This document shows, piece after piece, positions 5,182-29,597 of a stretch of DNA of 49,973 nucleotides (its first letter is position 1; every line of letters starts with the position of its first letter). A program made the position numbers and the translations under genes. The stretch lies in sequence record DRR723986_6330. The stretch is one strand, 5' to 3'. Below the pieces are notes generated by a model. The model did not search any database, had not been told where the DNA came from, and saw only the letters and a program-made list of their open reading frames with translations.

Positions 5182-8100
5182 GTGGAACCGAGTACAAACG
5201 ACCTGCAGGCGTGGATCGATGTTGGTGGAACGTTTACCGACTGCATCTTGTCTCGGGGCGGCGAACTGAGTCGGATAAAGGTGCTTAGCTCCGGAGCGAC
5301 ACCGATCCAGGTTCTACGGCGAGACAACTCTGAAAGAGTGACGCGGCTATGGTGCGACGCGAATTGGCCAGCCGGTTTTTGGCGCGGCTGCAAGCTCGTG
5401 GAAACCCGACCTCCCGCCGATTCTCATTCCGCCACAGCTCGTGTCGAGCAGGCGATTACCGACAGCGGGAGCAACTGGTTGCAATTAGACCAAGCGGTTG
5501 CTGAGCAGTCGGGGCGACTTGAAATCCACACTCCGCTGCATGCCCCCGTTCTTGGCATACATCTACTTCTTGGGATTCCGGCGCTGAACAAGCTACCTTC
5601 TGTTGCTGTACGGCTAGGGACAACGCGCGGGACGAATGCGCTGTTGACGCGCCGCGGTGCCGACACAGTGCTCGCAATCACAGCGCCGTTCGAAGACTTG
5701 CTGGCCATCGGCGATCAGACTCGCCCAGACCTTTTCGCCTTGGACGTAGAAAAGTCTCCGCCGTTGCCCAGCGTGATTATTCCGATCGACGAACGCTTAG
5801 ATGCAACAGGTGCGGTGCTCGTTCCACTCGACGAAAAATTGGCCATCGGTAAACTTCAAGAAGCCTTCGACGCGGGCTCACGCTCGCTTGCGATTTGCTT
5901 AATGCATAGCTACCTGAATCCTGACCACGAAACTCGACTGGCTGAACTGGCGCGGCGTGTTGGTTTTCAGGATATCTCGGTCTCCAGCCAAGTGGCTCCA
6001 CTGATCGAAGTCGTTTCTCGAGCCGAGACGACGGCGCTTGACGCCTATCTGAGCCCCGTCATTCGAAGCTACTTGGAAGAGATCGCAAATCAACTGGGCG
6101 GCGCATCGTCGGTTGATTTGCAGGTGATGACAAGTGCTGGGGGGCTGGTCCAATGGTCGGAGTTTCGAGGGAAAGATAGCATCTTGAGCGGCCCTGCTGG
6201 CGGCGTGGTCGCACTGGAGCATATCGGCAAATCGCTCGGACTCAACAATTTGATTGGGATCGACATGGGCGGCACGAGCACCGACGTTTGCCGCGCTGAT
6301 GGTGCTCAGAATCTAGAATACGAATCATCAAAAGCCGGTGTCAGGATACTAACACCAACGGTTCCTATACAGACCGTTGCGTCAGGAGGAGGCTCGGTTT
6401 GCTGGTTCGATGGAGTATCTTTGCGAGTCGGTCCGCAAAGCGCTGGCGCATCCCCTGGGCCAGCCTGTTATGGTGCAGGCGGACCATTGACGCTTACCGA
6501 TGTCAATCTTCTGCTCGACATTTTGCCTGACGATCAGTTCCCCTTCCCACTGGATCGCTCCGCGGCAGAGAGTCGCATCGAAGAGCTATTTCACGAATGC
6601 CGGTCGGCGACGAACATTTCCTCGACGGAAGCACTGGCCGAAGGGCTCAGACGGCTTGCTTGTGAACAAATGGCTGAGGCGGTTCGAACGGTGTCGATTG
6701 CTCAGGGACGCGATCCGCGCGATCACGCCTTGGTTGGCTTCGGAGGAGCCGCCGGATGCCATGTTTGCGAGGTGGCGGATCTGCTAGGCATTCGGACGGT
6801 TATCGACCATCCCGATGCGGGCCTGCTGAGCGCCCTCGGAATGGGGCTTGCCGCAGGGCGACGGGACGCAACACTGCCGGTCTACTCAGGCATCGAAGAC
6901 GTCGATTTTGCTCGGGTTCAGCAAGATGCCATAGGAGCGGTCCAGCGATTGAGTGCCGCTGAATCCGCGCCCAAGTGTCTTTTCGAAATCCGATATGCAG
7001 GCACCGACTCAACGATCAGCGTACCGCAAACTGAGTTCTTGTTTGCTGAACTTTCTGTTGAGTCGCCAGAAAGGCGGCGTGAATTCTCACTTAAACTGCG
7101 GGCGGAATTTGAAGAGAAGCACCGCAGTCTATACGGATATGTTCAGCTCGATTGTGCTGTCGAGTTGGTTTCCGTGCGGTGCGAAGTTCTCTCTCTTGCT
7201 GCATACAGCCTACCTCGCGAGCATCAGCTTCCGCGCGATAGGCACTCAACGACCGCTACGCAACACCGCGAGCCTGAAAGCAACCGAACGGACGGACGCA
7301 TACCGACCGAGGCACGCTCTGATCTGGTTCCTGGCAGGCAGGTCGTGGGGCCATGCATCATCAACAACAGCGGTTCGACTCTCTACATTCCGGAGGGCTG
7401 GCATTCGTGCGTTGCCAGCCAGGGAACATTGGTGTTGGAGAAGGCTCAGCGTTCCGGAGTTGAAACGTCGCGCGAGGTCGACGCCGTGTTGCGTGACTGC
7501 TTCGCGCAGCGATTGAGTGCTATTGCTGATCAAATGGGAGTCGTGCTTAAACGAACTGCCACAAGCGTCAACGTCAAGCAGCGACAGGACTACAGTTGCG
7601 CGGTTTTCGATTGCGCCGGAACTCTGCTCGCCAACGCGGCTCACGTTCCGGTGCACCTTGGAGCGATGGGGGCGACGGTTCGCGGCATTATCCAGCGGTT
7701 CCCGCAAATGAACCAGGGCGATGTGTTCATTACAAATGATCCGTTTGAGGGCGGTTCTCATCTGCCGGATATTACCGTTGTCACACCAGTTTTCGCGCCC
7801 GATGGCTCGCCGGCTTTTTTTGTTGCGAGCAGAGCCCATCATGCGGATGTTGGTGGCATTGCACCTGGATCAATGAGTGTCACTGCCACCAATCTGGCTG
7901 AAGAGGGAGTGCTCATCCAGCCAAGTTACTTATCCCGGCAGGGGAGCGACCGGATCAGTGAAATCGTGGTTTCGATGCAACAGCATGACTTTCCACCGAG
8001 GAAACTCGATGATCTCCAAGCTGACTTGAATGCTCAGCGAGCGGCAAATCATCGAGGCGCGAGTTTGCTTGCTGACTACTGCGATCAACTTGCGAAGCAT

Positions 8101-9057
8101 GCTGGCACCGACGAAGCTCCGTGGCAGCCTTCGGAGCAGCTCGCCGAATCACTCTTGGAAGCTTCACAGCAACGCATGCAAATGTATCTGCAAGGTAATT
8201 TTCAGCCCAACGAAAGATTCACAGCTAGCGACCAACTCGAAGACGGCACTGCAATCAACGTTTCGCTAGAGCTCGACGAACAGGCCATCTTGCACTGCGA
8301 TTTTTCAGGCTCGGGTCCCACGTCGGCGACCAACCTCAACGCGAACCCATCGATCACTTCTGCAGCACTGCTTTATGTCCTCCGTTGTCTGATCGACGAC
8401 GACCTGCCGCTGAACGAAGGTGCGCTTCGGTGCATCAGCCTGATGATTCCTACGGGGGTTCTCAACTCTCAACGTGGCTCCACTGCGGCGGAAAGTCCTG
8501 CGGTTGCTGCTGGCAATGTCGAAACCAGCCAACGTATTGTTGATGTACTTCTGCAGGCACTTGGGAAGGCAGCTTGTTCGCAGGGGACGATGAACAATCT
8601 CTTGTTTGGCGACGACACGTTTGGTTTCTATGAAACACTTTGCGGCGGAGCCGGAGCTACGGCGAATCGTGATGGGGCAAGTGGAGTGCATACGCATATG
8701 ACCAACACTCGTTTGACCGATCCTGAGGTCCTGGAGAGTCGCTACCCGGTGCGGCTTGAAGAGTTCGGCCTCAGGCATGGATCGGGAGGAAGCGGGCTGC
8801 ACGGTGGTGGTGATGGAGTGGTGCGACGAATTCGTTTTCTGCGCGATGTGCAGCTTTCGCTGTTGACGTCACGCCGCGAGCAGGGGCCACCCGGGATCTG
8901 CGGAGGCGGCCCAGGTGCACCAGGAAGAAATGCCCTGATCGACGCTGAGGGCAATCAGACAGAGTTGCCAGCTTTCTGTAGTATGCAAATCAAAGCAGGA
9001 AGCCAGCTCAGGATCGAGAGCCCCGGCGGCGGTGGATTCGGACCGCTCGAGCCGTGA
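5182..9057 (+). CDS. fused hydantoinase A/B / ATP-dependent 5-oxoprolinase family protein
   Basis: [66 protein letters not shown] and C-terminal PGGGGFG. Confidence 0.92.
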
Positions 9058-9108
9058 ACTGCATTTGATCTAGGGCCACGGGAGTTGTCGATGAGGATCG
9101 AGCAGGCG

Positions 9109-9450
9109 CTACTGGCCTTTGGAGTGATTGAAGAAGGGAATCAAGCATTCGTAGTGGATCGAACACCTATAGCCTTTCGCTTTCGAGTCAGCGAGTAGAT
9201 CGTCATCAATTGCGCATAGTGCAATCGGGTTGTCGAAATCAATTCTCGTTCGTCCTAGGTGGCCAATAATTGGCCCGAGCGGCAAGCAGTGTCTTCGCAC
9301 TACTTGGAGGGCATCGTCGTCGGCCAGCGTTTCAACGGTAACATAACCGCGAATAGGGCGGCTCCCGATGAAGCAAGCCAGGGCAAACACGATACAGATA
9401 CTCAAGAGTACGGAGCCCGCTACGATCCGCCCAGCAGCAACGCGACTCAT
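9109..9450 (-). CDS. small hypothetical membrane-anchored protein
   Basis: Fills the gap between genes. N-terminal hydrophobic helix (IVAGSVLLSICIVFALACFIG). Start uncertain: ATG 9450 or TTG 9483. Confidence 0.5.
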   Translation of the reverse strand: MSRVAAGRIVAGSVLLSICIVFALACFIGSRPIRGYVTVETLADDDALQVVRRHCLPLGPIIGHLGRTRIDFDNPIALCAIDDDLLADSKAKGYRCSIHYECLIPFFNHSKGQ

Positions 9451-9514
9451 CCGTTCAACAAATGCTTCGTAAAGTTCATCCAAAGTTGCTACCTCCGGAA
9501 TCGGGAAAAATCGG

Positions 9515-10513
9515 CTACAGCGCGGATACGTTGACGTAGCGGAATTGCCCACCGGTGCTGTCGGCAAGTGCTTCGATCCAGCCACCGCGTCCAGCGGCAT
9601 TGCGGGTTCCAAACTGAATTGTGTGAATCGTGGCCCCTGCATTGGCCGCTCGATCAACAACGGACTCAAGCTCCCGCGTCGAAGGGGCCGGAACGTCGGC
9701 GTCAGTTAGGAAGAAGAGAACGTCGGGCCCCATGGCAAGTCCCATGCGGAGGGCATCAATGTGTTGCGTGCTTCCGTCGGCCACGACCCCTTTTACAAAG
9801 CGAAGTGCGTCACGCTTGTCGCGATCTGTGCCTCGTAGAATTTGTGGCCCCTGAGGACTGTTGCTGCCGAATGCCGTCGGATACTCGTTGTAGAAGATAA
9901 CTTGGAACTCATGGGCCTCTCCAAGTGAGCCGATGCTTTCGATCATCTCACGTTTGGCGGCGCGGAATGGTGCCCCCGAATAACCATTCATGCTGGCCGA
10001 CCGGTCGAACACATAGACGAAGCGGTGCCCTTCACCTTCGATGCCGAAAACTTGCGTCTTGGCTTTGGCGACGTCGCGATTTCCGCTGATTCCCGTTACA
10101 CCTTCACCAAGGCCCAGACCACCCGAGGCAGCCTCGGCGGCGCCACCGGCATCGGTGCTGCCCGGCAAAAGATCGGCCAAGGCAGCTTCGGCGGCAGATG
10201 CTAAATCGGCGGCTGTATCTGAAGGTAGCACTGATTCCGCACTGGGGGCTTCGGCAGCATCGCCGGATCCCTCAGCTCCTTCGACAAGTTCGTAAGACTC
10301 CTGGCCTTGGTAGACAACGGCAACTCCAATGGGTCGTCCCGGTTCATCACCGGTCCCCTTGGGCACATTGGTCCAGAAGACGGCAAGCACAACGATCAGG
10401 CTGACGTGAAACAGCAGCGAAACTAACCAAGCGGGCATGCTGCTAAGCGACACGCCCGTTCGCGGCAACTGCGGAATCTCCCGTCGCTTCAAACGTTTGG
10501 GTTCACTGCTCAT
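9515..10513 (-). CDS. membrane-anchored von Willebrand factor A domain protein
   Basis: TM segment AWLVSLLFHVSLIVVLAVFW, Ala/Gly linker, MIDAS DRSAS...T...LTD and GGQFRYV end. Confidence 0.88.
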   Translation of the reverse strand: MSSEPKRLKRREIPQLPRTGVSLSSMPAWLVSLLFHVSLIVVLAVFWTNVPKGTGDEPGRPIGVAVVYQGQESYELVEGAEGSGDAAEAPSAESVLPSDTAADLASAAEAALADLLPGSTDAGGAAEAASGGLGLGEGVTGISGNRDVAKAKTQVFGIEGEGHRFVYVFDRSASMNGYSGAPFRAAKREMIESIGSLGEAHEFQVIFYNEYPTAFGSNSPQGPQILRGTDRDKRDALRFVKGVVADGSTQHIDALRMGLAMGPDVLFFLTDADVPAPSTRELESVVDRAANAGATIHTIQFGTRNAAGRGGWIEALADSTGGQFRYVNVSAL

Positions 10514-10590
10514 CGTTGTTGCTTGTCAAATGCCTGCTTCTGAACCGAACGCACGTCTCTATCAGTGAATCGGAACCTGTCTGCTCTGGT

Positions 10591-10890
10591 TTAAGGGCCA
10601 GGGTCAGTGGCAGGAACAGTAACAGAAGTACCGTTAATTACTATCTCGATTTGGTCTGTGTCGCCTTCCTTTTGTTTTGGAGGACGATCACCCATAGTGA
10701 ACGTAACGACGATTGTTTCGTAATCGGATCCATAAAGATTGGTCGTGTGGACGGTTACGTCTTTGCATGGAGTCTCGCTCTTGCCTACTTTCCAATTCAC
10801 CTTTACAGATGATTTGTCCTTCGGCGGAGCTCCAACGATGACATGGTTTGTTGCTCCCGGGCTGAAATAGATGGTTGGTAGGATTTGCAT
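10591..10890 (-). CDS. small hypothetical beta-rich protein (one DTDQIEI domain)
   Basis: SD-like GAGGTG just upstream of the ATG. Clear paralogy to the C-terminal domain of the neighbouring 224-aa protein. Confidence 0.8.
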   Translation of the reverse strand: MQILPTIYFSPGATNHVIVGAPPKDKSSVKVNWKVGKSETPCKDVTVHTTNLYGSDYETIVVTFTMGDRPPKQKEGDTDQIEIVINGTSVTVPATDPGP

Positions 10891-10957
10891 TGGTTCTCAC
10901 CTCTGGTGAATTCTTGTTTGGTTTTCGACGCCTAAAGAACAGAACAACGAAGCAGCA

Positions 10958-11632
10958 CTAGCTCGGTACCGTAACAACAGGCACACTGTCGATTGAAATC
11001 TCGATTTGATCGGTGTCACTTTCCTTGCCTACAGGTCCGCGAGCAGGAAGCTGCAACTGTACCACAATGGCAGTGTCAATCGGCCCGTAGTTTCGAACGT
11101 TGCGAACCGTACATGTCACACTACCGCCACCCCTCGTCCACTTTGCGCTGAATCTCGTGCTCTCCAGCCCCCGCAGCTCATCACCATCCAGGACGATTTG
11201 AATGTTTCGACTTGGGCGGAAGCTGATAAGCGGCAGTGTTCTGCTGACAAAGGGGACTCCTCTTGTCGTTTGCCTATAAGCAGCCTGGTCGTCGTCATCA
11301 ATGGGGTTGGCGTCATCGTCGTCGTCGTCTGGCGGCGGTGGATTGGGATTGGCGGGGAGCGTGACACTAGCGCCGTCGATCGTAATTTCTAAAACGTCAG
11401 TGTCGCTTTGTATACGGTCCGATTCACATAGCCTGTTCGTGAGCAGCGCGAGGTGAAGAACCACGCTTGAGTCGTTGATCGATTCCGCTTGTAAAACAGT
11501 TAACTGCAGATCGCCGGAGTCTGTCCTCAAGACTGCTTGGACATCCTGAGGACTGGCAAGGTCAGATCCGTGGACGGTGACCGCAAATGAAGGCTCGGTC
11601 ACTGCTGGACCGATGCGAGTTAAGCTGGGCAT
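10958..11632 (-). CDS. hypothetical protein with two DTDxxEI domains and a Pro/Asp linker
   Basis: SD AGGAG upstream of the ATG. Internal duplication SDTDVLEITIDG / SDTDQIEISID. Linker PNPPPPDDDDDD. Confidence 0.85.
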   Translation of the reverse strand: MPSLTRIGPAVTEPSFAVTVHGSDLASPQDVQAVLRTDSGDLQLTVLQAESINDSSVVLHLALLTNRLCESDRIQSDTDVLEITIDGASVTLPANPNPPPPDDDDDDANPIDDDDQAAYRQTTRGVPFVSRTLPLISFRPSRNIQIVLDGDELRGLESTRFSAKWTRGGGSVTCTVRNVRNYGPIDTAIVVQLQLPARGPVGKESDTDQIEISIDSVPVVTVPS

Positions 11633-11675
11633 GACTTATCTCCTGGGCAAACGCGTTGCGAATTTAAATGTGTTC

Positions 11676-14600
11676 TCATTGAGCGTCGGGCAATTTTTCC
11701 TGGATCCAGCTTTGTGCGGCAAGTAAAGGAGATTGCGTGAAAAATGTTCTTGCTTTCGCACGTGACGCAGCAGCGGCTTGAACATCACCCTGCATCGCCT
11801 CCACTTCAGCTCTTTCCAGGTAAGCGTCACCAGCGGTCTCCAAAGCACTAACCAGTTGCGGTGACTGCTCGACAAGTTGCTCGATCTCCATTGTAGCAAT
11901 CTCGATCACGCCCGCGGCTTCATCGTAGGCTTCCTGCTCACGAAGTTCGGCGCATTTAAGTGTCCGCGCGGCCGCGAGAGATTTTGTATATTGATAAAAA
12001 TCGGGAAAATTGGCCGCAAGTGGCTCTAGGAGGCGGATCGTCTCGTCCAATTCACTTGACCGCAAATCCATGTCAGCAGCTTGCGCTTTGAGCAAACGGA
12101 AGTGCCCCAGGTGGTACAGGGCGGAAATATTGCGAAAACGGCGGTCACTCTTGTCTCCTGAGTACGCTTCCAACTCCACAGGAACTCGATCTAGCAATCC
12201 CGACGCTTCTTCCAGATCTCCGAGTTCGCGGTGGCAAGTTGCAGCGCGAAGCAATGCGAGGATAAAGACCGACTCGAGCGCGTCGCCAGAGCGATTGTCT
12301 TCCAGGAGCTCTACAGACTCCAGCGCCTGAGGCAGCGCGTCGGAAAAATGACGTTGGCCACATTTGTGTGCAGCAGAATCAAGGACGCACATCGCCTTTA
12401 TGTGCGCCACGGCGGCCAGATTCGAGCTCCAATTCGGATCTGCCATCATTCGCTCGGTGGTCAAAATAGCTTCATCCATCAGAGCGTCGGCTTCTTCATA
12501 ACGTCCGAGTCCAGTCAGCGTATTGCTGAGACTCTTTATCGCTTGAGGAAGCTTTACCGATGCATTTGAAACGGCCTGCAACTCCGAGGCCTCCCGAAAC
12601 ATATCGATCGCTTTGCGGACATTTTCAATTCCGAGATCGATCTTCATCTGCTTACGCAGGTTATCACCATGCGTCAGGTAGAGTTTTCCAAGCCAGTAGA
12701 TCGAATCGTTGTCGCGGCGGAACAGCCTGTTGTCAGGATGCAGTTCGTCAAAGTCCTCGACGAATTGCACGACCTCGGTATACAGCCAATTGCGTACGGG
12801 CGTCATGGCAGCGTCTTGCGAGAATTCTTCCTCGCCGCGTTTGACAAACCGCTGCGTCAAGACTTGCAAGCCATCGTAGTTTGCCTGCAGGTCTTCCTGG
12901 CTCTGCTGCAAGTCGGCGTTTTTACGTTGGAGAGTCTCCTTCTGCTCCTCTAGAGTTTCTTTCTGCTGCTCCAAAGTGTCCTTCTGTGCCGTCAGTACGA
13001 TTTGGTTGTCTTCAAGCGTATCGCGTTGGGTCGAGATCACACCATTTTTGTAAACGCTGACGGCATAAGCAGCAGACAATCCCAGTAGAGCCGTCAATAC
13101 AGTTGCGGCCAGGCCCATCACTGCGGACTTGCGTTTTCGTAGCACCCGACCGGCTCGCTGCACCATCGTGTCTGGCTTTGCAACAATTGGTTCATCGGCC
13201 AGCCAGCGTTCCAGATCCTTCGCCAGTGCTATGGCAGAATCGTAGCGAGCTTCTTTGTCTAGGCTCATCGCCTTCAAGCAAATTGCCTCCAGTTGCAGCG
13301 ATATACTGCTGTCAACTTCTCGTGGCTTGGGGAACTTACCGCGGATCACATCCTCGATAACTTTCCCCTTGTCGGTTCGCTTGATGGGTGGCCGTCCGGT
13401 CAGGAGATTGAAAAGCGTTGCACCCAAGCTGTAGACGTCGGTGGCGTCGTCGAGTTCGCCAACTCGGCCACCAGCCTGTTCTGGGCTCATGAATTCGGGC
13501 GTTCCTGCAGTGGCTCCCGGCTGGGTTGGAGCCGCCGTACTTCCGGACCGCGGGACGACGGGTGATTGAGTGCCGCCATCGGACGCCTCCGCCGAGCCGA
13601 TAGCCTTCGCAAGGCCCCAGTCGACGACCAATGTCTCACCATAGCGTCCCAGCATGATGTTGCCTGGCTTGAGGTCCCTGTGGAGGACTTGCCGGGAGTG
13701 CGCGTAAGCAATTGCTTCGCAGACGTCGATCATTCGGCGAATCAGGTTGCGCGTTGACAAGTTGCGTTCCGAAGCCGACATGCGAGCCTTCGACTGATGA
13801 AACTCCTTGATCGCATCATCAAGACTGTCGCCGCGAATGAAACGCATGCAGTAATAGGGACGACCGTCGCTGAACGCGCCTAAACCGTACACGGGGACAA
13901 TGCCGGGGTGTTCTAGCCGTCCGGTAATTTCCGCTTCAATCTGAAGGCGTTGGCGAGCCTCTGTGGATGGGGCGTATTCTTCTCGCACCTCCTTGAGCGC
14001 TACTTCTCGGTTGAGTTCCTCGTCACGAGCGACCGAGACCTCCCCCAGCCCACCTTTGCGGTGTGGCCGCAGGACACGAAAACGACTGTTTGCTCCAAGC
14101 GACTCGGCGTAAAGCATTGTTGAGCCTCCAGTCGTGCCTCCGTCTGTTCGCGCCGCTGCCTCGCTACCGGTCGGATCTCCAAAGATCTTGGTAGCGCCCT
14201 CGCTAGCGGTTTTCAACGACTGGAGGCTCGAATGCGCATCGCCGGAACGCGCAAGTTGCGCAGACACAATTTGGCGCAACAGTTTGTCTTCATCATCTGT
14301 GACGACACGATTACGGACGAGCGCTGCGCCAAGATCGTCTTTGGATCCATTGGCGACTTCGTGCATGGTGCGCATCAATGCATCGAGACTCACGTATCCA
14401 AGTTGAACGCCTAGTTGCCCGTAGAGGCGGTCCATGTCGGAGCCGAGCGGCGGGTCGGATTCGGGATTCGCTTCGGTATGCATCTCGGGCGCACCGGTTT
14501 CGCTCTTGAGTTGAACGGACTCAAGCTCCTCAAGCTTGCCCAAAAGGGCCACCTGTAATTCGGGCTTACCGGCAGTGGCCGCCTTGATAAATTCAACGCG

Positions 14601-14699
14601 TTGCGTGGGCTGAAGCTGAAGCGCATGGCGCGCAAGCGTATCGACTGTCGCGGGGTCGTAACCTGACAACGGACCTACTTTCAGATGGGGCGTGGGCAA
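11676..14699 (-). CDS. membrane Ser/Thr protein kinase with coiled coil and C-terminal TPR-like helical region
   Basis: GGLGEV, VALKE, HRDLKPGN, DWG and GTPEFMSPEQ, then a TM segment (AVMGLAATVLTALLGLSAAYAV), QKETLEE-type heptads and helical repeats. TTG start is uncertain. Confidence 0.92.
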   Translation of the reverse strand: MPTPHLKVGPLSGYDPATVDTLARHALQLQPTQRVEFIKAATAGKPELQVALLGKLEELESVQLKSETGAPEMHTEANPESDPPLGSDMDRLYGQLGVQLGYVSLDALMRTMHEVANGSKDDLGAALVRNRVVTDDEDKLLRQIVSAQLARSGDAHSSLQSLKTASEGATKIFGDPTGSEAAARTDGGTTGGSTMLYAESLGANSRFRVLRPHRKGGLGEVSVARDEELNREVALKEVREEYAPSTEARQRLQIEAEITGRLEHPGIVPVYGLGAFSDGRPYYCMRFIRGDSLDDAIKEFHQSKARMSASERNLSTRNLIRRMIDVCEAIAYAHSRQVLHRDLKPGNIMLGRYGETLVVDWGLAKAIGSAEASDGGTQSPVVPRSGSTAAPTQPGATAGTPEFMSPEQAGGRVGELDDATDVYSLGATLFNLLTGRPPIKRTDKGKVIEDVIRGKFPKPREVDSSISLQLEAICLKAMSLDKEARYDSAIALAKDLERWLADEPIVAKPDTMVQRAGRVLRKRKSAVMGLAATVLTALLGLSAAYAVSVYKNGVISTQRDTLEDNQIVLTAQKDTLEQQKETLEEQKETLQRKNADLQQSQEDLQANYDGLQVLTQRFVKRGEEEFSQDAAMTPVRNWLYTEVVQFVEDFDELHPDNRLFRRDNDSIYWLGKLYLTHGDNLRKQMKIDLGIENVRKAIDMFREASELQAVSNASVKLPQAIKSLSNTLTGLGRYEEADALMDEAILTTERMMADPNWSSNLAAVAHIKAMCVLDSAAHKCGQRHFSDALPQALESVELLEDNRSGDALESVFILALLRAATCHRELGDLEEASGLLDRVPVELEAYSGDKSDRRFRNISALYHLGHFRLLKAQAADMDLRSSELDETIRLLEPLAANFPDFYQYTKSLAAARTLKCAELREQEAYDEAAGVIEIATMEIEQLVEQSPQLVSALETAGDAYLERAEVEAMQGDVQAAAASRAKARTFFTQSPLLAAQSWIQEKLPDAQ

Positions 14700-15045
14700 T
14701 TGCTAGGGGCAAACTGCTAGAGAGGAACCGAATTGGCCGAGCAGCAGTCCGGAAGAGACATCTTAACATTTCTGCATCGTTATTGAACACAGTGCGATCG
14801 TCCGCTGTGCTTAGAACAAGTGGGAGCCAAGCGTGGACGGGGTTCGGTGCATGGAAAGCAGCAGTAGAAAGCCCGCTCGCGGTTCCTCGACCGCACTCAA
14901 CGCGGTGCTGGCTGATGCGCCAACGAGAAGTCTTTTTAGCGATTTTGACGGAGCGGCTATGAGCCCTTTGTCGGCGGAGTCGTTGAGCGCCGTCGCGTCA
15001 TTTGGCTAGTTACTGTGGTGAATCTGGCGTCCTGAATCTGCCATT

Positions 15046-15077
15046 GATAAAGGCCCCAAGCAAATGCTTGAGGCCTT
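15046..15077 (-). terminator. probable intrinsic terminator of the TIGR03009-like gene
   Basis: Stem AAGGCC-C-CAAGCA / TGCTTG-A-GGCCTT with a short U-tail on minus, about 45 bp after the stop at 15123. Confidence 0.55.
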
Positions 15078-15122
15078 GAGTGGTAGTTCCATGCCTGTGC
15101 CAGACCAAGCCTGTTGTCGCGA

Positions 15123-16226
15123 TTAGCGATTGATGGGTTGCCCAGGAGTCTGTGGGTTAGCAACTTGCTGTCGCGCCTCTGGTGGAATGTACGGCTTCTC
15201 CTCGACAGTCCAGTCTTTGCCAAGTGTGGTGGCAATGAAGCTCTTTCGAAACAGATTGGCACGCAACGCATCCATGACCGGATTCACGGAACGATTGTCG
15301 AATTGGTAGATTTCGCGAACTTGGTTCTTCGGTGTCCAGTTTGGCATGAAGACGACCATGGCCTTGGGCAGCGTGTCGGCTCGATCAAGGTAGATTTGCA
15401 CACGAGAATAATTGCCAGCGTCATCGGCCCGCTTAGGAACGACCTCCAGTAGCACTTCGTTGGGTTTGCCTTCGACGGCCACGTTCCGAATCCAGTAACG
15501 CCGGAGCATCTCATCCGCTTTAACACCAAATACAAACGGTAGCGGACTTTGGAACACTTTGTTGTCGCGGTATTCCGGCGGCAACTCAACTCGCAGCGCC
15601 TTCTTTTCGTTTTGATCGAGTATGTGGATCCAGCGACCGTCGCAAATCCAGTGCTCGCCATGAGGCTCATCAGGGTTGACTGCGTACTCCGGTGGCGATT
15701 CCTTAACCAGGGTTTCTAGCTTGTCAATTTTGTACTCAGCTTTGCCTGGATCTTCAAACTTCAGCGTGCCAACGCCTCTGCTGAAGTGGCCAGCCGCAAA
15801 GTTTGCTGGGTTGAACTGCCACCGCTGAACCGTGCACGTGTAACGTTTGATGTCGGCGGTTCGCTTTTCCCACACTTGCAAAACAGCGTTAACGAATTGC
15901 TGATCCTGGGCGCTGAGTGCCGGCCACGGCGGTTGTGCTACCTGTGCTTGGCCCGCAGCGACAGCTTGTTCAACCTGCACAAGTGGCACTCGGCGTTGCC
16001 CGGGTGCAAGTGGCTGCTGCCCGTTTTGTTGACTAGCTTGTTGCTGTGCAGCTTGTTGCTGAGCCATCTGCTGCCGGTACGCCTGCTGCTGCGCTGGCGT
16101 CATCTGCTGCTGTGAAGACGCTTGAAATGCGACGGCTGGAGTGATGGATGAAAGCACAATTCCCGCACCTAGAAGGCCAGAAAGTGTTGTGGCAACTATT
16201 TTTCTCACTCTGCAGAGCATTTGCAT
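15123..16226 (-). CDS. TIGR03009-like planctomycete exported protein
   Basis: Signal peptide, Gln-rich linker, then VLQVWEK, GEHWICDG, PLPFVFG and RYW motifs recalled for this family. Confidence 0.75.
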   Translation of the reverse strand: MQMLCRVRKIVATTLSGLLGAGIVLSSITPAVAFQASSQQQMTPAQQQAYRQQMAQQQAAQQQASQQNGQQPLAPGQRRVPLVQVEQAVAAGQAQVAQPPWPALSAQDQQFVNAVLQVWEKRTADIKRYTCTVQRWQFNPANFAAGHFSRGVGTLKFEDPGKAEYKIDKLETLVKESPPEYAVNPDEPHGEHWICDGRWIHILDQNEKKALRVELPPEYRDNKVFQSPLPFVFGVKADEMLRRYWIRNVAVEGKPNEVLLEVVPKRADDAGNYSRVQIYLDRADTLPKAMVVFMPNWTPKNQVREIYQFDNRSVNPVMDALRANLFRKSFIATTLGKDWTVEEKPYIPPEARQQVANPQTPGQPINR

Positions 16227-16464
16227 CTTCCTTGACGCTGGTGAGGGGACGGATCTTGAGCGCGGACCGGCAGACTGGAAGCCAGGCGGTCGGTTCTGTG
16301 GACAACAGTAGCAAGGATCATCAGTTGGCTTCTAGATGAGTTTCTCACAACAGCCCGAGTTTCCCAGAACAGCCAAACCGCTCCTTAATCAAGTCCGATG
16401 TTTGGCTATGATGGTGGAAAATCGTGCGAATCCGCCTCGTTCAACTACTCCGTAAAGTGCACAT

Positions 16465-17064
16465 TTGGTGACCAGCGATCATTCTCAGCCAAACGTGCCC
16501 GAAGTGCCGCCTGTTGCTAGCAAGCCGCTGATGCCGGATTCCACTGGGCCAAACTCCAGGCCGAATTCCACTGGCGGTTCCCCACATGCGGAGAATCTGC
16601 AGGGGGCGAACAACCAGTCGTTGAATTACACGCCGTCGCCCACTCGAAATCTTTGGCTGTGCATCCCATGGGCGGTGGCACCGGCATGTGTGTTGATCTT
16701 GGCTGCAGTCATGTCCGTTGGCGAAGGGCGTATGGTTTATTTACCTATGCTCGATGCCCCGGTGCCGGAAACGTGCGGCATGCGAAGGAGCCTGCAAGTC
16801 GATTGTCCGGGTTGCGGGCTCACACGAACATTCATCCACTTGGCACATGGGGACTTCCGTAAGGCGTGGAACCTGCATTCGATTGGAATTGCGTTATTCG
16901 CTTTCGTTGCCGCCCAGATTCCTCTCGCGGTGGTTCACTACGTTTCGACCGACATAAAATTTCGCCGAGCCATCACTCGCCGCAATGAGCAGGCGTTGAT
17001 AGTGTTAGCGATCGCCGTCATGCTGAGATGGGTCTACTTGCTCGCGACAGGAAATATACTTTGA
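16465..17064 (+). CDS. DUF2752-like membrane protein
   Basis: C-x8-CPGCGLTR motif followed by hydrophobic helices. Start uncertain. Confidence 0.8.
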   Translation: MVTSDHSQPNVPEVPPVASKPLMPDSTGPNSRPNSTGGSPHAENLQGANNQSLNYTPSPTRNLWLCIPWAVAPACVLILAAVMSVGEGRMVYLPMLDAPVPETCGMRRSLQVDCPGCGLTRTFIHLAHGDFRKAWNLHSIGIALFAFVAAQIPLAVVHYVSTDIKFRRAITRRNEQALIVLAIAVMLRWVYLLATGNIL

Positions 17065-17961: not shown

Positions 17962-18825
17962 CTACTGCCAGGTGATGTCTTCAGCCGACTGGATAACCTG
18001 TTCACCTTCAGCGGTTTGCAAAAGTAGTCGGCCATTTGCATCCACGCCGTTGCATAGACCGCTCAGTCGTTTGCCAGCGGTTCGCAGAGTGATTTGCCGG
18101 CCGTGCAGCAAGCAACGCCGCTGCCATTCCATCCGCCAGGATTCGTCTGCGTCAGTCGTCCAGTGCTCAACCTGCCGTTCGATCGACTCGACCAAGTGCA
18201 CAAGGACCGTTTCCGGCTCAACGGCAACACCTGCTTGGCGAGAAATGCATGTTGCTCGTTCTGCAATCTCACTGGGGGCAGAGCCCCAGTCCATCTGGAC
18301 GTTTAATCCGATGCCAACGATCCAACGCAATCCATCGGTGCAGTTGACCGACTCGATTAGAATGCCAGCAGCCTTCTTTCTCGATAGGTAGACATCATTG
18401 GGCCACTTCAATGACAGTTGAAGTCCCTCGCGGGCGTCTTCCTGCCAGGCTTCGATGGTCTCTGCGACAGCCAAGCCGATGTGAAGGGCCAGAAGTGGAA
18501 TCCGTTCTGCCTGGCTCGGGGAGTCGTTGACAGACAGTGCGAGGGACAGCATTAGGCATCCATCGGGCGACCACCACTGATTGCCTCCGCGTCCGCGACC
18601 GGCGGTTTGCTGGTCCGCTACGACTAATAGCCGCTTGTCGGTCGATGGAGTCGTGCTGCCGTCAAGCCTTCGCCGTAGTTCATCGCTTGTTGAGTCGATG
18701 CTTTCCAACCAGGCAACTTCGCTTACCCAGCGTCGATTCAAGATGGATTCTACGGTTGCCTGGCGTGATTGAATCATGGGCTTGGGCATTTCAAACTCAC
18801 AGCTTGCAACTTTCTGCAAGTCCAT
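17962..18825 (-). CDS. birA: biotin--[acetyl-CoA-carboxylase] ligase, monofunctional (no N-terminal HTH)
   Basis: IDSTS, QTAGRGRGGNQW, KWPND, KAAGILIE and GIGLNV. Confidence 0.92.
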   Translation of the reverse strand: MDLQKVASCEFEMPKPMIQSRQATVESILNRRWVSEVAWLESIDSTSDELRRRLDGSTTPSTDKRLLVVADQQTAGRGRGGNQWWSPDGCLMLSLALSVNDSPSQAERIPLLALHIGLAVAETIEAWQEDAREGLQLSLKWPNDVYLSRKKAAGILIESVNCTDGLRWIVGIGLNVQMDWGSAPSEIAERATCISRQAGVAVEPETVLVHLVESIERQVEHWTTDADESWRMEWQRRCLLHGRQITLRTAGKRLSGLCNGVDANGRLLLQTAEGEQVIQSAEDITWQ

Positions 18826-18835
18826 GTGTCGTGAA

Positions 18836-19858
18836 TCATTTCGATGCGAGGGCGACCGTCAGGACGAGAGCAAGTGCAAAAACTCCGACGACGGTCAAGA
18901 ACATCCAGCTAACGCTCCGGCCGTTTTCCGGAGCCAATTTGGTCTGCAGCAGCTTCAGCCCAGGGTCAACGACGCTACCGGCGCCAACGTCGTCCGCCGC
19001 AGCATCGATATGCTCGCTGTCACCCAGGATTTGGCGTTGTTCGGGCGAGTCGAGCGCTCCGATCATCACACCCTGAACTGTTCTCGCGTTGAATGGTCGG
19101 TCGTTGGGATCTTTTTGCAATAATTGGTGCACAATATTGCAAATTGGTTTCGGGACATCCGAAACTAACTCTTCCACCCTGGGCGGATCTTTAAAAAGGT
19201 GTTGCTCGAATAGATTGGCAAAATTGGTCCCTTGGAAAGGTTTTTGCCCAGTTAGAAGTTCGAACAACACGCAGCCCAGAGAGTAAAGATCAGCTTGGCC
19301 GGTCAGATTATTGTCGCCGCGGATTTGTTCGGGAGGCATGTACGAATTGGTACCAACGGTCAGCCCTTGGTTGGTCAAGTCTGCGGAATTGGTGTCACGA
19401 GCGATGCCGAAATCCCCAAGCTTGACGCTTGCTTCCATCGTCATGAAAAGATTCGATGGCTTCAAATCGCGATGAATAATGCCGAAGTTATGCGCGTGCT
19501 GAAGCGCACTGCAGACTTGACGGCCAATCGACGCGACCTCAGCCCAGTTGAGGCGATCGTAGCGTTGGAGCAAGTCGCTGACGTTGCCACCGTCCAAAAT
19601 TTCCATCGCGTAAAAGAGTTGCCCGTCCCGTTCGCCATCACCGTAATAGTGGATAATGTGCGGATGTTTGAGTCGTTCCAGGATGGCAATCTCGCGCCGA
19701 AACCGAGCTCGAACCAATTCGTCTGCCGAAACAGCTTTCTGCAAGAATTTGACGGCGACCATGTCTCCCGTTGACTTGATCTTCGCGCGGAACACATCCC
19801 CTACTGTGCCCGTGCCGAGCGATTCTCCCAACTCGAGGTCGTCGAATTCGATTTTCAT
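18836..19858 (-). CDS. Ser/Thr protein kinase with C-terminal membrane anchor
   Basis: LGTGTVG, VAVK, HRDLKPSN, DFG and YMPPEQ, with a C-terminal hydrophobic helix. Confidence 0.92.
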   Translation of the reverse strand: MKIEFDDLELGESLGTGTVGDVFRAKIKSTGDMVAVKFLQKAVSADELVRARFRREIAILERLKHPHIIHYYGDGERDGQLFYAMEILDGGNVSDLLQRYDRLNWAEVASIGRQVCSALQHAHNFGIIHRDLKPSNLFMTMEASVKLGDFGIARDTNSADLTNQGLTVGTNSYMPPEQIRGDNNLTGQADLYSLGCVLFELLTGQKPFQGTNFANLFEQHLFKDPPRVEELVSDVPKPICNIVHQLLQKDPNDRPFNARTVQGVMIGALDSPEQRQILGDSEHIDAAADDVGAGSVVDPGLKLLQTKLAPENGRSVSWMFLTVVGVFALALVLTVALASK

Positions 19859-27743: not shown

Positions 27744-28190
27744 GTACTAAACAGTCTTCTTTTAATGGGCCGCGTTTCGCCTTGAACACTCGAAGTTGAC
27801 CGCAAGGTTTTCCACGACGCGTGAAGTACGCATCTTTCGCCAAGTGAAGCGTTTCAAAGTACAGGGCTTAGAGCGTAAGGCTTGAAAGCAAAGTCAAAGG
27901 CTTCAAAGTGAGGTGCCTTTGATGAATCGATGCCCATGCACGATCCGTCGAGCCGCTGCTATACTCTTGCTCCGAAGCGAAGTCACTGCCGGCAGCGACT
28001 TCGCGCCGTGACCAGTCAACATTTTCCGCCTGAAATGTGGCGGCAACTAGCAATTATCCGGTGGAAGCAAGCGGTTCCCCAGGCATCGCAGCCACAGGCT
28101 ACCGGAAACGACCACTCGTCGCTTCGAATATTTGACGCTTTCAATCGCCAATTCACAAATCCACTTTTCATCGCCCGCCATCGTCATCAA

Positions 28191-29597
28191 ATGCCGCAGA
28201 GACCTCGACGCCCCCGCATCAATTGGCCTTACCGCATCACTTGGCTGGTGATCGTCCTTGCGTTGTTGGCTTACCTAGGCATCAAGATCCTGGCTGCTTC
28301 GCAGACGTTCGCCGATCGGAAGCTTGGCCCAGACTGGGGACTCGCGGCCGTTTCGGCTTTGCTCGATACCACCGTTGCAGTCTGGTTCATCGCGTTCGGA
28401 GCCTGCATTGGAAGCTTTCTCAATGTGGTCGCGTATCGACTGCCGCTCGGGCGAGGTATCGGTGGCTCGTCCAGTTGCCCCTATTGCAGAACTCCGATCG
28501 ATAGCACCGACAATGTGCCCATTCTGGGGTGGATCGGTGTGCGAGGGCGTTGCCGCGAGTGTCGACTTCCGATTTCGATTCAGTATCCGTTGGTCGAGTT
28601 TCTCGTCGCGGCAGTCTTTTTCTTTGTCTACTTAACCGAGTTCGTTTCCGGCGGGCGCAATCTGCCGGGTGAGCAGTTTGGTGCCGTCCGAAGCGACCTG
28701 TTGCACATCATGGTGACGAGCACAACGATGCTGCGTGTCGTCGCGTATCTATTGGCCGTCTGTGGACTGATCGCAGCGGCGCTGATTGCGACGAAGCGAC
28801 GTCGCGTGCCGCTCAGCCTGTATGCCTGGTCGTTGCTTCCAACGGTGCTCTTCGCGATCTTAGATCCCGAGTTGCTGCCAGTGAGTTGGAATCCTACCTT
28901 CGTTGACTTCACGCCTCGGCTGCAGTCGATTGCTACGCTTCTTTGTGGCACCGTAGCTGGTTTGGGAGCCGGTCGCGCGGTCGCCCATATCGTTTATCCC
29001 GGCTTTGATCCGTCCTTGCTTGCGTCGGATTCTGCGACGCGCGGCTGTCGTCAATTCCTTGGAGCGATGGCTACCGTTGGCTGTGTGCTTGGGTGGCAAG
29101 CTAGTGTGGCAGCCGCCACCGCAGCGTGCCTTTTCGGCATCTTGGCAATGATCACACTGCGACGGAGATTCCCGGTCGAACTAGGTGATTTGACTGTCTG
29201 GCTATGGCTGGGTTTGATTATCACCCGGGCCGCTTGGTCCACACTGGTGCGGCTTGGTGTTGTTTCCGCGGAAGTCCCAACGATTGGTTGGGCAATTGCC
29301 GGCGCCTTAGTTTTCGTCGCCAGTGCGTTCTTGTTCCGATTGGTTCGCAACACAATTGCGGAACCTGAAAACACACCTGAAGCTGGTACGTTCCCCGGCG
29401 GCGTGAGCGACAATTCTCCCGACGACGACTCTGATGAACTGGATGAAGATGCCGAAGCGGGTCTGCAACAAGAAGTCGCGCAGGTCGAGGAGTCAGGTGA
29501 AGATGATCGTTCAGAGCAAACGCCCGTAGATCAGGCACGGGATAATTCGCTAGGCGATCCAAAATTAGATGAGCGGAAACTAGACGAGCGGAATTAG
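28191..29597 (+). CDS. prepilin peptidase (A24)-like membrane protein, possibly catalytically inactive
   Basis: GSFLNVVAYRLP, CPYC...CREC zinc motif, DNVPILGW, ISIQYPLVE and LGWQ. Acidic C-terminal tail. Start moved to ATG 28191. Confidence 0.8.
   Translation: MPQRPRRPRINWPYRITWLVIVLALLAYLGIKILAASQTFADRKLGPDWGLAAVSALLDTTVAVWFIAFGACIGSFLNVVAYRLPLGRGIGGSSSCPYCRTPIDSTDNVPILGWIGVRGRCRECRLPISIQYPLVEFLVAAVFFFVYLTEFVSGGRNLPGEQFGAVRSDLLHIMVTSTTMLRVVAYLLAVCGLIAAALIATKRRRVPLSLYAWSLLPTVLFAILDPELLPVSWNPTFVDFTPRLQSIATLLCGTVAGLGAGRAVAHIVYPGFDPSLLASDSATRGCRQFLGAMATVGCVLGWQASVAAATAACLFGILAMITLRRRFPVELGDLTVWLWLGLIITRAAWSTLVRLGVVSAEVPTIGWAIAGALVFVASAFLFRLVRNTIAEPENTPEAGTFPGGVSDNSPDDDSDELDEDAEAGLQQEVAQVEESGEDDRSEQTPVDQARDNSLGDPKLDERKLDERN

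Follow-up and report, generated by a model that had tools for sequence, protein, structure and literature searches.

A planctomycetal receptor-type Ser/Thr kinase gene followed by genes for two small, leaderless proteins with a divergent, probably PKD-like β-sandwich domain

We analyzed a stretch of DNA of 49,973 nucleotides (sequence record DRR723986_6330), hereafter the window, and in it a minus-strand locus at positions 10,591 to 14,699, where the gene of a membrane-spanning Hanks-type Ser/Thr kinase is followed by the genes of two small proteins of 224 and 99 residues that share an Asp-Thr-Asp (DTD) motif. Our tentative reading, to which we give a rough probability of 0.45, is that an ordinary receptor kinase is probably co-transcribed with lineage-restricted, leaderless PKD-like proteins, which would be its cytoplasmic partners, and that the DTD block is an element of their fold. 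A check of the open reading frames (ORFs) confirmed the coordinates, the gene order on the minus strand and the gaps of 43 bp (11633–11675, kinase to 224-residue protein) and 67 bp (10891–10957, 224- to 99-residue protein) given in a first-pass annotation of this DNA. The same annotation had taken the DTD motif for a phosphorylation and docking site and the locus for an undescribed signalling or defence cassette.

The small proteins are made up of three copies of one domain of about 95 residues, two in the 224-residue protein (11336–11632 and 10961–11254) and one in the 99-residue protein. The copies are 25–34% identical, with 13 invariant columns that include D-T-D, E-I and I, and their invariant block reads D-T-D-x-x-E-I-x-I. 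When the copies are compared as DNA, only a 51-nt motif block stays similar (73%), which argues that the copies are old and that the block is under strong constraint. The motif reads TDVL (residue 78) and TDQI (residue 207) in the 224-residue protein and TDQI (residue 78) in the 99-residue protein; because the three instances lie in homologous copies, their recurrence reflects conservation in a repeated domain and not chance. A fourth copy was sought in all six frames of the window, and the search returned the three known copies only, plus a chance match at 1–402 (E 0.009 with the DTD profile), where an open-ended minus-strand ORF has a very acidic low-complexity tail rich in Ser, Thr, Asp and Glu. 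The linker between the two domains of the 224-residue protein reads PPPP-DDDDDD-ANPI-DDDD, for which the DNA has near-perfect runs of GAC/GAT (direct repeat D2). This acidic tract might vary in length or bind metal.

Neither small protein falls into a database family: NCBIfam and PHROGs gave no match for either, PADLOC gave a single chance match of 13 bits, and a word-based search of 5.8 billion proteins found no homologue of either one. That the two ORFs are not genes, as such a record could be taken to mean, is nevertheless hardly credible, since three diverged copies share a pattern at the protein level, an outside homologue exists (P0002, E 3.8e-14), the fold is predicted with confidence, and Shine-Dalgarno-like AGGAG and GAGG-type sites precede the ATG codons of both genes. 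The 224-residue ORF has a stop one codon before its ATG, the 99-residue ORF two codons before. Because these stops bar an extension and no hydrophobic stretch is present, the proteins have no signal peptide. The 224-residue protein carries a net charge of −16.

Structure models of both proteins were built with AlphaFold from the four-row alignment of the family. The model of the 99-residue protein is all-β, with seven strands, a predicted local distance difference test score (pLDDT) of 79.5 and a predicted template modeling score of 0.70. The model of the 224-residue protein, with a pLDDT of 65.1, has two β-domains and a disordered stretch at residues 115–135. Foldseek searches with the smaller model retrieved generic Ig-like sandwiches (best E 0.01, template modeling scores ≤ 0.48; an Ig I-set domain and β-2-microglobulin are among the matches listed), and those with the larger model retrieved two-domain IgG Fc and filamin. 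A search of PDB sequences with the domain profile gave a single chance match (E = 1).

PKD domains are normally extracellular, and it is across whole PKD repeats of surface proteins that the DTD profile aligns in register. Of 54 aligned repeat rows, 44 place the Trp of WDFGDG under that of the motif R-W-K-x-G. The DTD columns are covered by 48 PKD rows, with Thr in 31 cases, Ser in 9 and the second Asp in 42, and the repeats carry a block x-[ST]-D-x-h-x-h-x-h before their last strand. When the four-sequence family was compared by hhalign with 72 PKD repeats, which were cut independently around W-x-F-G-D from proteins pre-picked by the DTD profile, an alignment over 75 columns was obtained with a probability of 90.8% and E 1.2e-6; in the controls, the reversed alignment gave P 0.37 and eight column shuffles gave P 0.081–0.78. 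The small domain thus resembles PKD domains (PF18911/PF00801) in its size of about 90 residues, its predicted all-β character, a core Trp and then a Gly placed on W-D-F-G-D-G, and the succession of F-strand, loop, x-[ST]-D and a G-strand of alternating hydrophobic residues. It differs from them in having no Pfam match, no Ca2+ ligands and no full WDFGDG signature, of which the Trp and one Gly alone are kept, in three of the four family sequences as judged by eye. Moreover, it occurs alone or paired and not in long arrays, in proteins that are leaderless, strongly acidic and encoded next to a kinase. Sequence and model together suggest a divergent PKD-like/Ig-like β-sandwich, a remote relative that we do not count as a member of the Pfam PKD families.

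A HMMER search of 1.84 billion cluster representatives with the three-copy DTD profile gave 13 matches at E ≤ 0.001, a single one of which is a true small homologue: P0002, cited above for its E-value, has 123 residues and the C-terminus ...EGDTDELEITIDEVPVATLP. Eight matches are long proteins with 4–14 Pfam PKD_4 repeats and one is a K319L-like PKD protein. One carries a CHU_C domain of type IX secretion, and P0001 is an array of 12 repeats, each unit ending in ...DDTDQMDITIE. The remaining match, P0011, consists of low-complexity repeat sequence and is probably a false one. Profile scans of genome contigs yielded 30 pattern matches with the DTD-domain alignment and 96 with the alignment of the kinase sensor region, and none of either set was confirmed. 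As far as it is detectable by sequence, the family of small proteins consists of the window's copies and P0002. The literature holds no relevant description that we could find of a Ser/Thr kinase paired with PKD-like or Ig-like partners, of a bacterial SDTD/FHA pair or of leaderless PKD proteins.

In the model of the 99-residue protein, D77 and T78 stand directly before the strand 79–85, and residues 71–80 have a mean pLDDT of 87. The alternation I81/I83/I85 marks this segment of the model as a core strand. The DTD block is predicted to be an ordered site at the start of a strand and not an accessible unstructured segment. Since the block recurs in extracellular PKD repeats, a constraint of the fold suffices to explain its invariance. 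We conclude that the DTD motif is probably not a phospho-docking site and that the fold explains it better; the argument from the motif to a kinase substrate, on which the first-pass annotation had relied, is not supported: the block is shared with extracellular repeats and ordered in the model.

The kinase, whose residue numbers count from the TTG at 14699 (ORF of 1007 residues), matches Pkinase (PF00069) with 114 bits against a Pfam cut-off of 31.7 over residues 215–487, and its nearest solved structures are the kinase domains of Mycobacterium tuberculosis PknB (E 2.5e-34). The catalytic motifs, described earlier as intact, are indeed present: VALK at residue 233, HRD at 340, DWG at 360 and SPE at 405. 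All are kept in an orthologue, P0014, a full-length protein of 1008 residues that is 52% identical overall and 40% identical over the C-terminal TPR-like part. In both proteins the DFG motif reads DWG, the Asp being retained and the Phe replaced by Trp (residue 361, window positions 13618–13620), and the glycine loop of the kinase, GGLGEVS, is not a strict GxGxxG. As judged from these motifs, the kinase keeps the catalytic Lys, the HRD Asp and the Asp at the DFG position of Hanks-type Ser/Thr kinases. Its activation segment, from DWG to SPE, spans about 45 residues and is rich in Ser, Thr and Pro.

The transmembrane segment and the heptad stalk noted in the first pass are both found. Windows of 19 residues with a Kyte-Doolittle mean of at least 1.6 start at residues 525–532 and nowhere else, giving one hydrophobic segment, and the stalk beyond it comprises eight consecutive heptads with Leu in register, a periodicity that P0014 retains. 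The C-terminal part of about 400 helical residues is fairly called TPR-like, as TPR matches exist and every one of them stays under the Pfam cut-off (the best, TPR_10, with 23.3 against 27.5 bits). Of 8000 candidates scored, P0014 alone proved to be related to this sensor region. The N-terminus of P0014 aligns from residue 11 of the kinase ORF, at a TTG at 14669 that stands behind GTAGG; because P0014 begins there, this TTG is likely the true start, and the real protein probably has 997 residues. Residues 1–200 (14100–14699) are conserved in P0014, including a block D-x-D-R-L-Y-G-x-L-x-V-Q-L-G-Y, and no Pfam or NCBIfam model matches them; they appear to form a cytoplasmic domain of no known family that precedes the kinase domain.

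In a study of Planctomycetota (PMC11032199), 70–80% of the Ser/Thr kinases are reported to have transmembrane regions and a cytoplasmic kinase domain, their TPR or WD40 parts are mostly periplasmic, and genomes of the Pirellula clade are credited with about 20–60 such kinases each. Taken with the single transmembrane segment, this description suggests a periplasmic location for the present kinase's C-terminal region. The likeness to these membrane kinases consists in the Pkinase domain, the motifs VAxK, HRDLKPGN and SPE, one transmembrane segment after the kinase domain and helical repeats beyond it. In contrast to them and to PknB, the kinase has DWG in place of DFG, 200 N-terminal residues without a family, TPR matches below threshold and a sensor region with one relative. 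Overall it looks like a receptor-type Hanks Ser/Thr kinase of a kind ordinary among planctomycetes. The receptor reading of the first pass is reasonable, with a catalytic domain that looks cytoplasmic and a helical region that looks extracytoplasmic, in an architecture that is itself ordinary.

The kinase gene and the two small genes probably form an operon, as suggested by their common strand, short gaps, ribosome-binding-like sites and the lack of hairpins in the gaps. RNA-folding z-scores against shuffled sequences were +1.48, +1.44 and +1.06, which indicates no stable hairpin in the gaps, and the count of terminator-like sites, 12, matches background (8.3 ± 2.8 in shuffled sequences). A sigma-70 scan of 9000–16500 detected no promoter, a result that says little for a planctomycete. 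Two more genes follow on the same strand. The first encodes a protein of 332 residues with a hydrophobic segment at about residues 23–51 and, after a spacer rich in Ala, Gly and Glu, a VWA-like part (VWA_2, E 0.0038, 18.3 bits against a Pfam cut-off of 27); from its position it is a possible further member of the operon. The second, a small membrane-anchored ORF without a Pfam or PHROG family, may be the last member, and the putative operon would then have five genes.

In the reading that we favour, the kinase domain would lie in the cytoplasm and be followed by one transmembrane helix, with the coiled-coil stalk and the TPR-like helical region outside the membrane. The kinase and the two lineage-restricted small genes would probably share one transcript, and the small proteins would remain cytoplasmic, serving as protein-binding adaptors or partner modules in the kinase pathway. 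In each of their domains the DTD block would close the F-G loop and open the next-to-last strand, conserved as a builder of the fold. The small proteins may be phosphorylated at some Ser or Thr, and nothing singles out the Thr of the DTD motif.

Several points weigh against this reading. As regards the PKD assignment, neither small protein matches a Pfam model at E ≤ 1, those of PKD included, and Foldseek with the 99-residue model has no PKD structure among the top matches listed, the template modeling scores being below 0.5. The PKD proteins of the hhalign set had been chosen by the DTD profile itself, and single PKD repeats score only about 11 bits. When 21 repeats of P0007, P0010 and P0012, which are without the [ST]D strand, were used instead, the alignment covered 30 N-terminal columns with a probability of 7.6% and E 0.0046. 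The Ca2+ ligands DxDG and VxD, described for clostridial PKD-like domains in PMC4356367, are absent from the small domains in alignments judged by eye. As regards function, the cytoplasmic location, which we infer from the leaderless sequences, would be unusual for PKD domains, the adaptor role is one that we purely infer, and the co-transcription, though probable, is read from the arrangement of the genes. Finally, strand alternation in the model may put Thr78 on the same face as the invariant Glu82, and the two could form a functional surface. This last point leads to a bolder version, in which the small proteins would be a new class of PKD-like Ig domains that stand alone in the cytoplasm, dedicated partners whose same-face T-x-E surface is read or phosphorylated by the cytoplasmic half of the kinase, including its 200 N-terminal residues; we consider it improbable.

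It is very unlikely, in our view, that the kinase has the small proteins as dedicated substrates, phosphorylating the DTD Thr so that the resulting pT-x-x-I/L recruits an FHA-type reader, all as part of a new cassette for signalling or defence. In favour of this idea, each of the four family sequences keeps the Thr, the genes lie directly 3′ of the kinase gene after short gaps, and proteins without a signal peptide could be reached by a cytoplasmic kinase domain. A eukaryotic parallel exists in MDC1, whose SDTD repeats are, according to PMC2442910, a cluster of CK2 sites that serve in the phospho-dependent docking of NBS1; the likeness lies in the letters S/G-D-T-D and in an Ile or Leu at +3 from the Thr. 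All three motifs do fit T-X-X-I/L, as had been pointed out, yet the pattern T-x-x-[ILVD] is unspecific as such, with 7 instances in the larger and 5 in the smaller protein, 12 together. The MDC1 repeats lie in a disordered region, whereas the motif is here placed by the model inside a folded β-domain, at an ordered strand start and not in a disordered acidic tract. Furthermore, the same position holds Thr or Ser in 40 of the 48 aligned rows of extracellular PKD repeats, which are out of the reach of a cytoplasmic kinase, and no FHA (PF00498) or PP2C domain occurs among the 34 window proteins scanned, a set in which the 99-residue protein is the only one shorter than 150 residues. The defence part of the proposal fares no better. 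PADLOC matches cover essentially the kinase-domain region (the best, PD-T4-6, residues 204–507; a few reach about 630) and stay below their cut-offs, as do the NCBIfam matches of the kinase to Mad6 (103.8 against 460 bits) and PglW (62.6 against 990 bits). None of the partner genes of PD-T4-6, MADS or BREX was found, the neighbours being genes for oxoprolinase, biotin ligase, GlgC and IlvD. With sub-threshold matches to the kinase domain only, housekeeping flanks and even GC content, a defence island was rejected.

Adjacency without shared function is a real possibility: the small Ig-like proteins would be lineage orphans, or partners of the VWA-like transmembrane protein and the small membrane protein encoded downstream. 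Kinases of this type come by the tens in a planctomycete genome (PMC11032199), so that many genes will have one as a chance neighbour, the window itself holds a second kinase at 18836–19858, and the two further same-strand genes follow after spacers of 77 and 31 bp. The family has very few members, and the contig scans confirmed no further locus that shows the linkage. Against mere neighbourhood stand the short gaps without terminators and the fact that exactly one relative was detected for the kinase (P0014) and one for the small domain (P0002), at similar divergence, which is compatible with joint inheritance and no proof of it. Export of the small proteins by a non-classical route, as ligands or co-sensors of the TPR-like region or as partners of the periplasmic VWA protein, seems to us a long shot. 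It would agree with the extracellular nature of all the detected remote relatives, which are repeat proteins, and with the predicted placement of the kinase sensor part and the VWA domain outside the membrane, following PMC11032199. However, the proteins have neither a signal peptide nor room for one, the single conserved Cys in three of the four family domains allows no disulphide pair, and no secretion genes lie nearby.

Table 1. Features of the kinase locus and its immediate neighbours, with window coordinates
Feature	Coordinates	Strand	Basis or remark
Hanks-type Ser/Thr kinase	11676..14699	-	1007 aa, Pkinase PF00069 match
Kinase catalytic domain, residues 215-487	13239..14057	-	VALK, HRDLKPGN, DWG, SPE
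Single transmembrane segment, about residues 525-550	13050..13127	-	Hydropathy
Heptad (putative coiled-coil) stalk, residues 557-612	12864..13031	-	Leu periodicity
C-terminal helical TPR-like region	11679..12863	-	Sub-threshold TPR; predicted periplasmic
224-aa acidic leaderless protein, two DTD/PKD-like domains	10958..11632	-	ORF and domain alignment
Linker of 224-aa protein, Pro/Asp-rich	11255-11335	-	Joins the two DTD/PKD-like domains
DTD motif 1, D77-T78-D79 of 224-aa protein	11396..11404	-	Domain alignment
DTD motif 2, D206-T207-D208 of 224-aa protein	11009..11017	-	Domain alignment
99-aa leaderless protein, single DTD/PKD-like domain	10591..10890	-	ORF and domain alignment
DTD motif 3, D77-T78-D79 of 99-aa protein	10654..10662	-	Domain alignment
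332-aa protein, N-terminal transmembrane segment and weak VWA-like domain	9515..10513	-	VWA_2 sub-threshold; 77 bp 3′ of the 99-aa gene
Small membrane-anchored ORF	9109..9483	-	Probable TTG start at 9483, 8 nt 3′ of GGAGG, 31 bp past the stop of the VWA gene
TIGR03009 'plancto_dom_2' protein	15123-16226	-	423 bp upstream of the kinase; 96.5 bits against a cut-off of 90.5

The TIGR03009 protein encoded upstream of the kinase has a Gln-rich N-terminal part, a hydrophobic leader and a planctomycete-specific domain. Its presence, a GC content of 53–57% throughout the window and two sulfatase genes elsewhere in it point to a planctomycete chromosome. The remaining genes of the window are housekeeping genes, among them those for oxoprolinase, biotin ligase, GlgC, IlvD and cyclophilins. 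An Rfam scan of 9000–16500 gave no match, nor did a tblastn comparison with plasmids and phages. At 5182–9057 on the plus strand, one ORF of 1291 residues fuses the A and B parts of a hydantoinase/oxoprolinase and converges on the 3′ end of the kinase cluster. The second Ser/Thr kinase (18836–19858, minus strand) is a soluble protein of 340 residues (Pkinase E 1.2e-57) with an unrelated upstream neighbour; its gene adjoins that of a biotin-protein ligase (17962–18825), and it illustrates the density of kinases in this genome. A plus-strand gene at 27930–29597 encodes a protein of 555 residues in which only the N-terminal domain of a prepilin peptidase is matched (A24_N, E 2.8e-27), the peptidase body being unmatched.

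The value of these results is mainly corrective: the DTD motif is best seen as part of the fold in a divergent PKD-like domain, and the kinase is of a standard planctomycetal type. The family of small proteins is too rare to back the claim of a conserved "system". To our knowledge, the substrates of nearly all kinases in Planctomycetota are unknown. If the small proteins are partners of the kinase, this would be a rare bacterial Hanks kinase with genetically linked targets of a defined fold, and cytoplasmic PKD-like partners of this kind would represent an Ig-fold adaptor module for Hanks-kinase signalling in bacteria.

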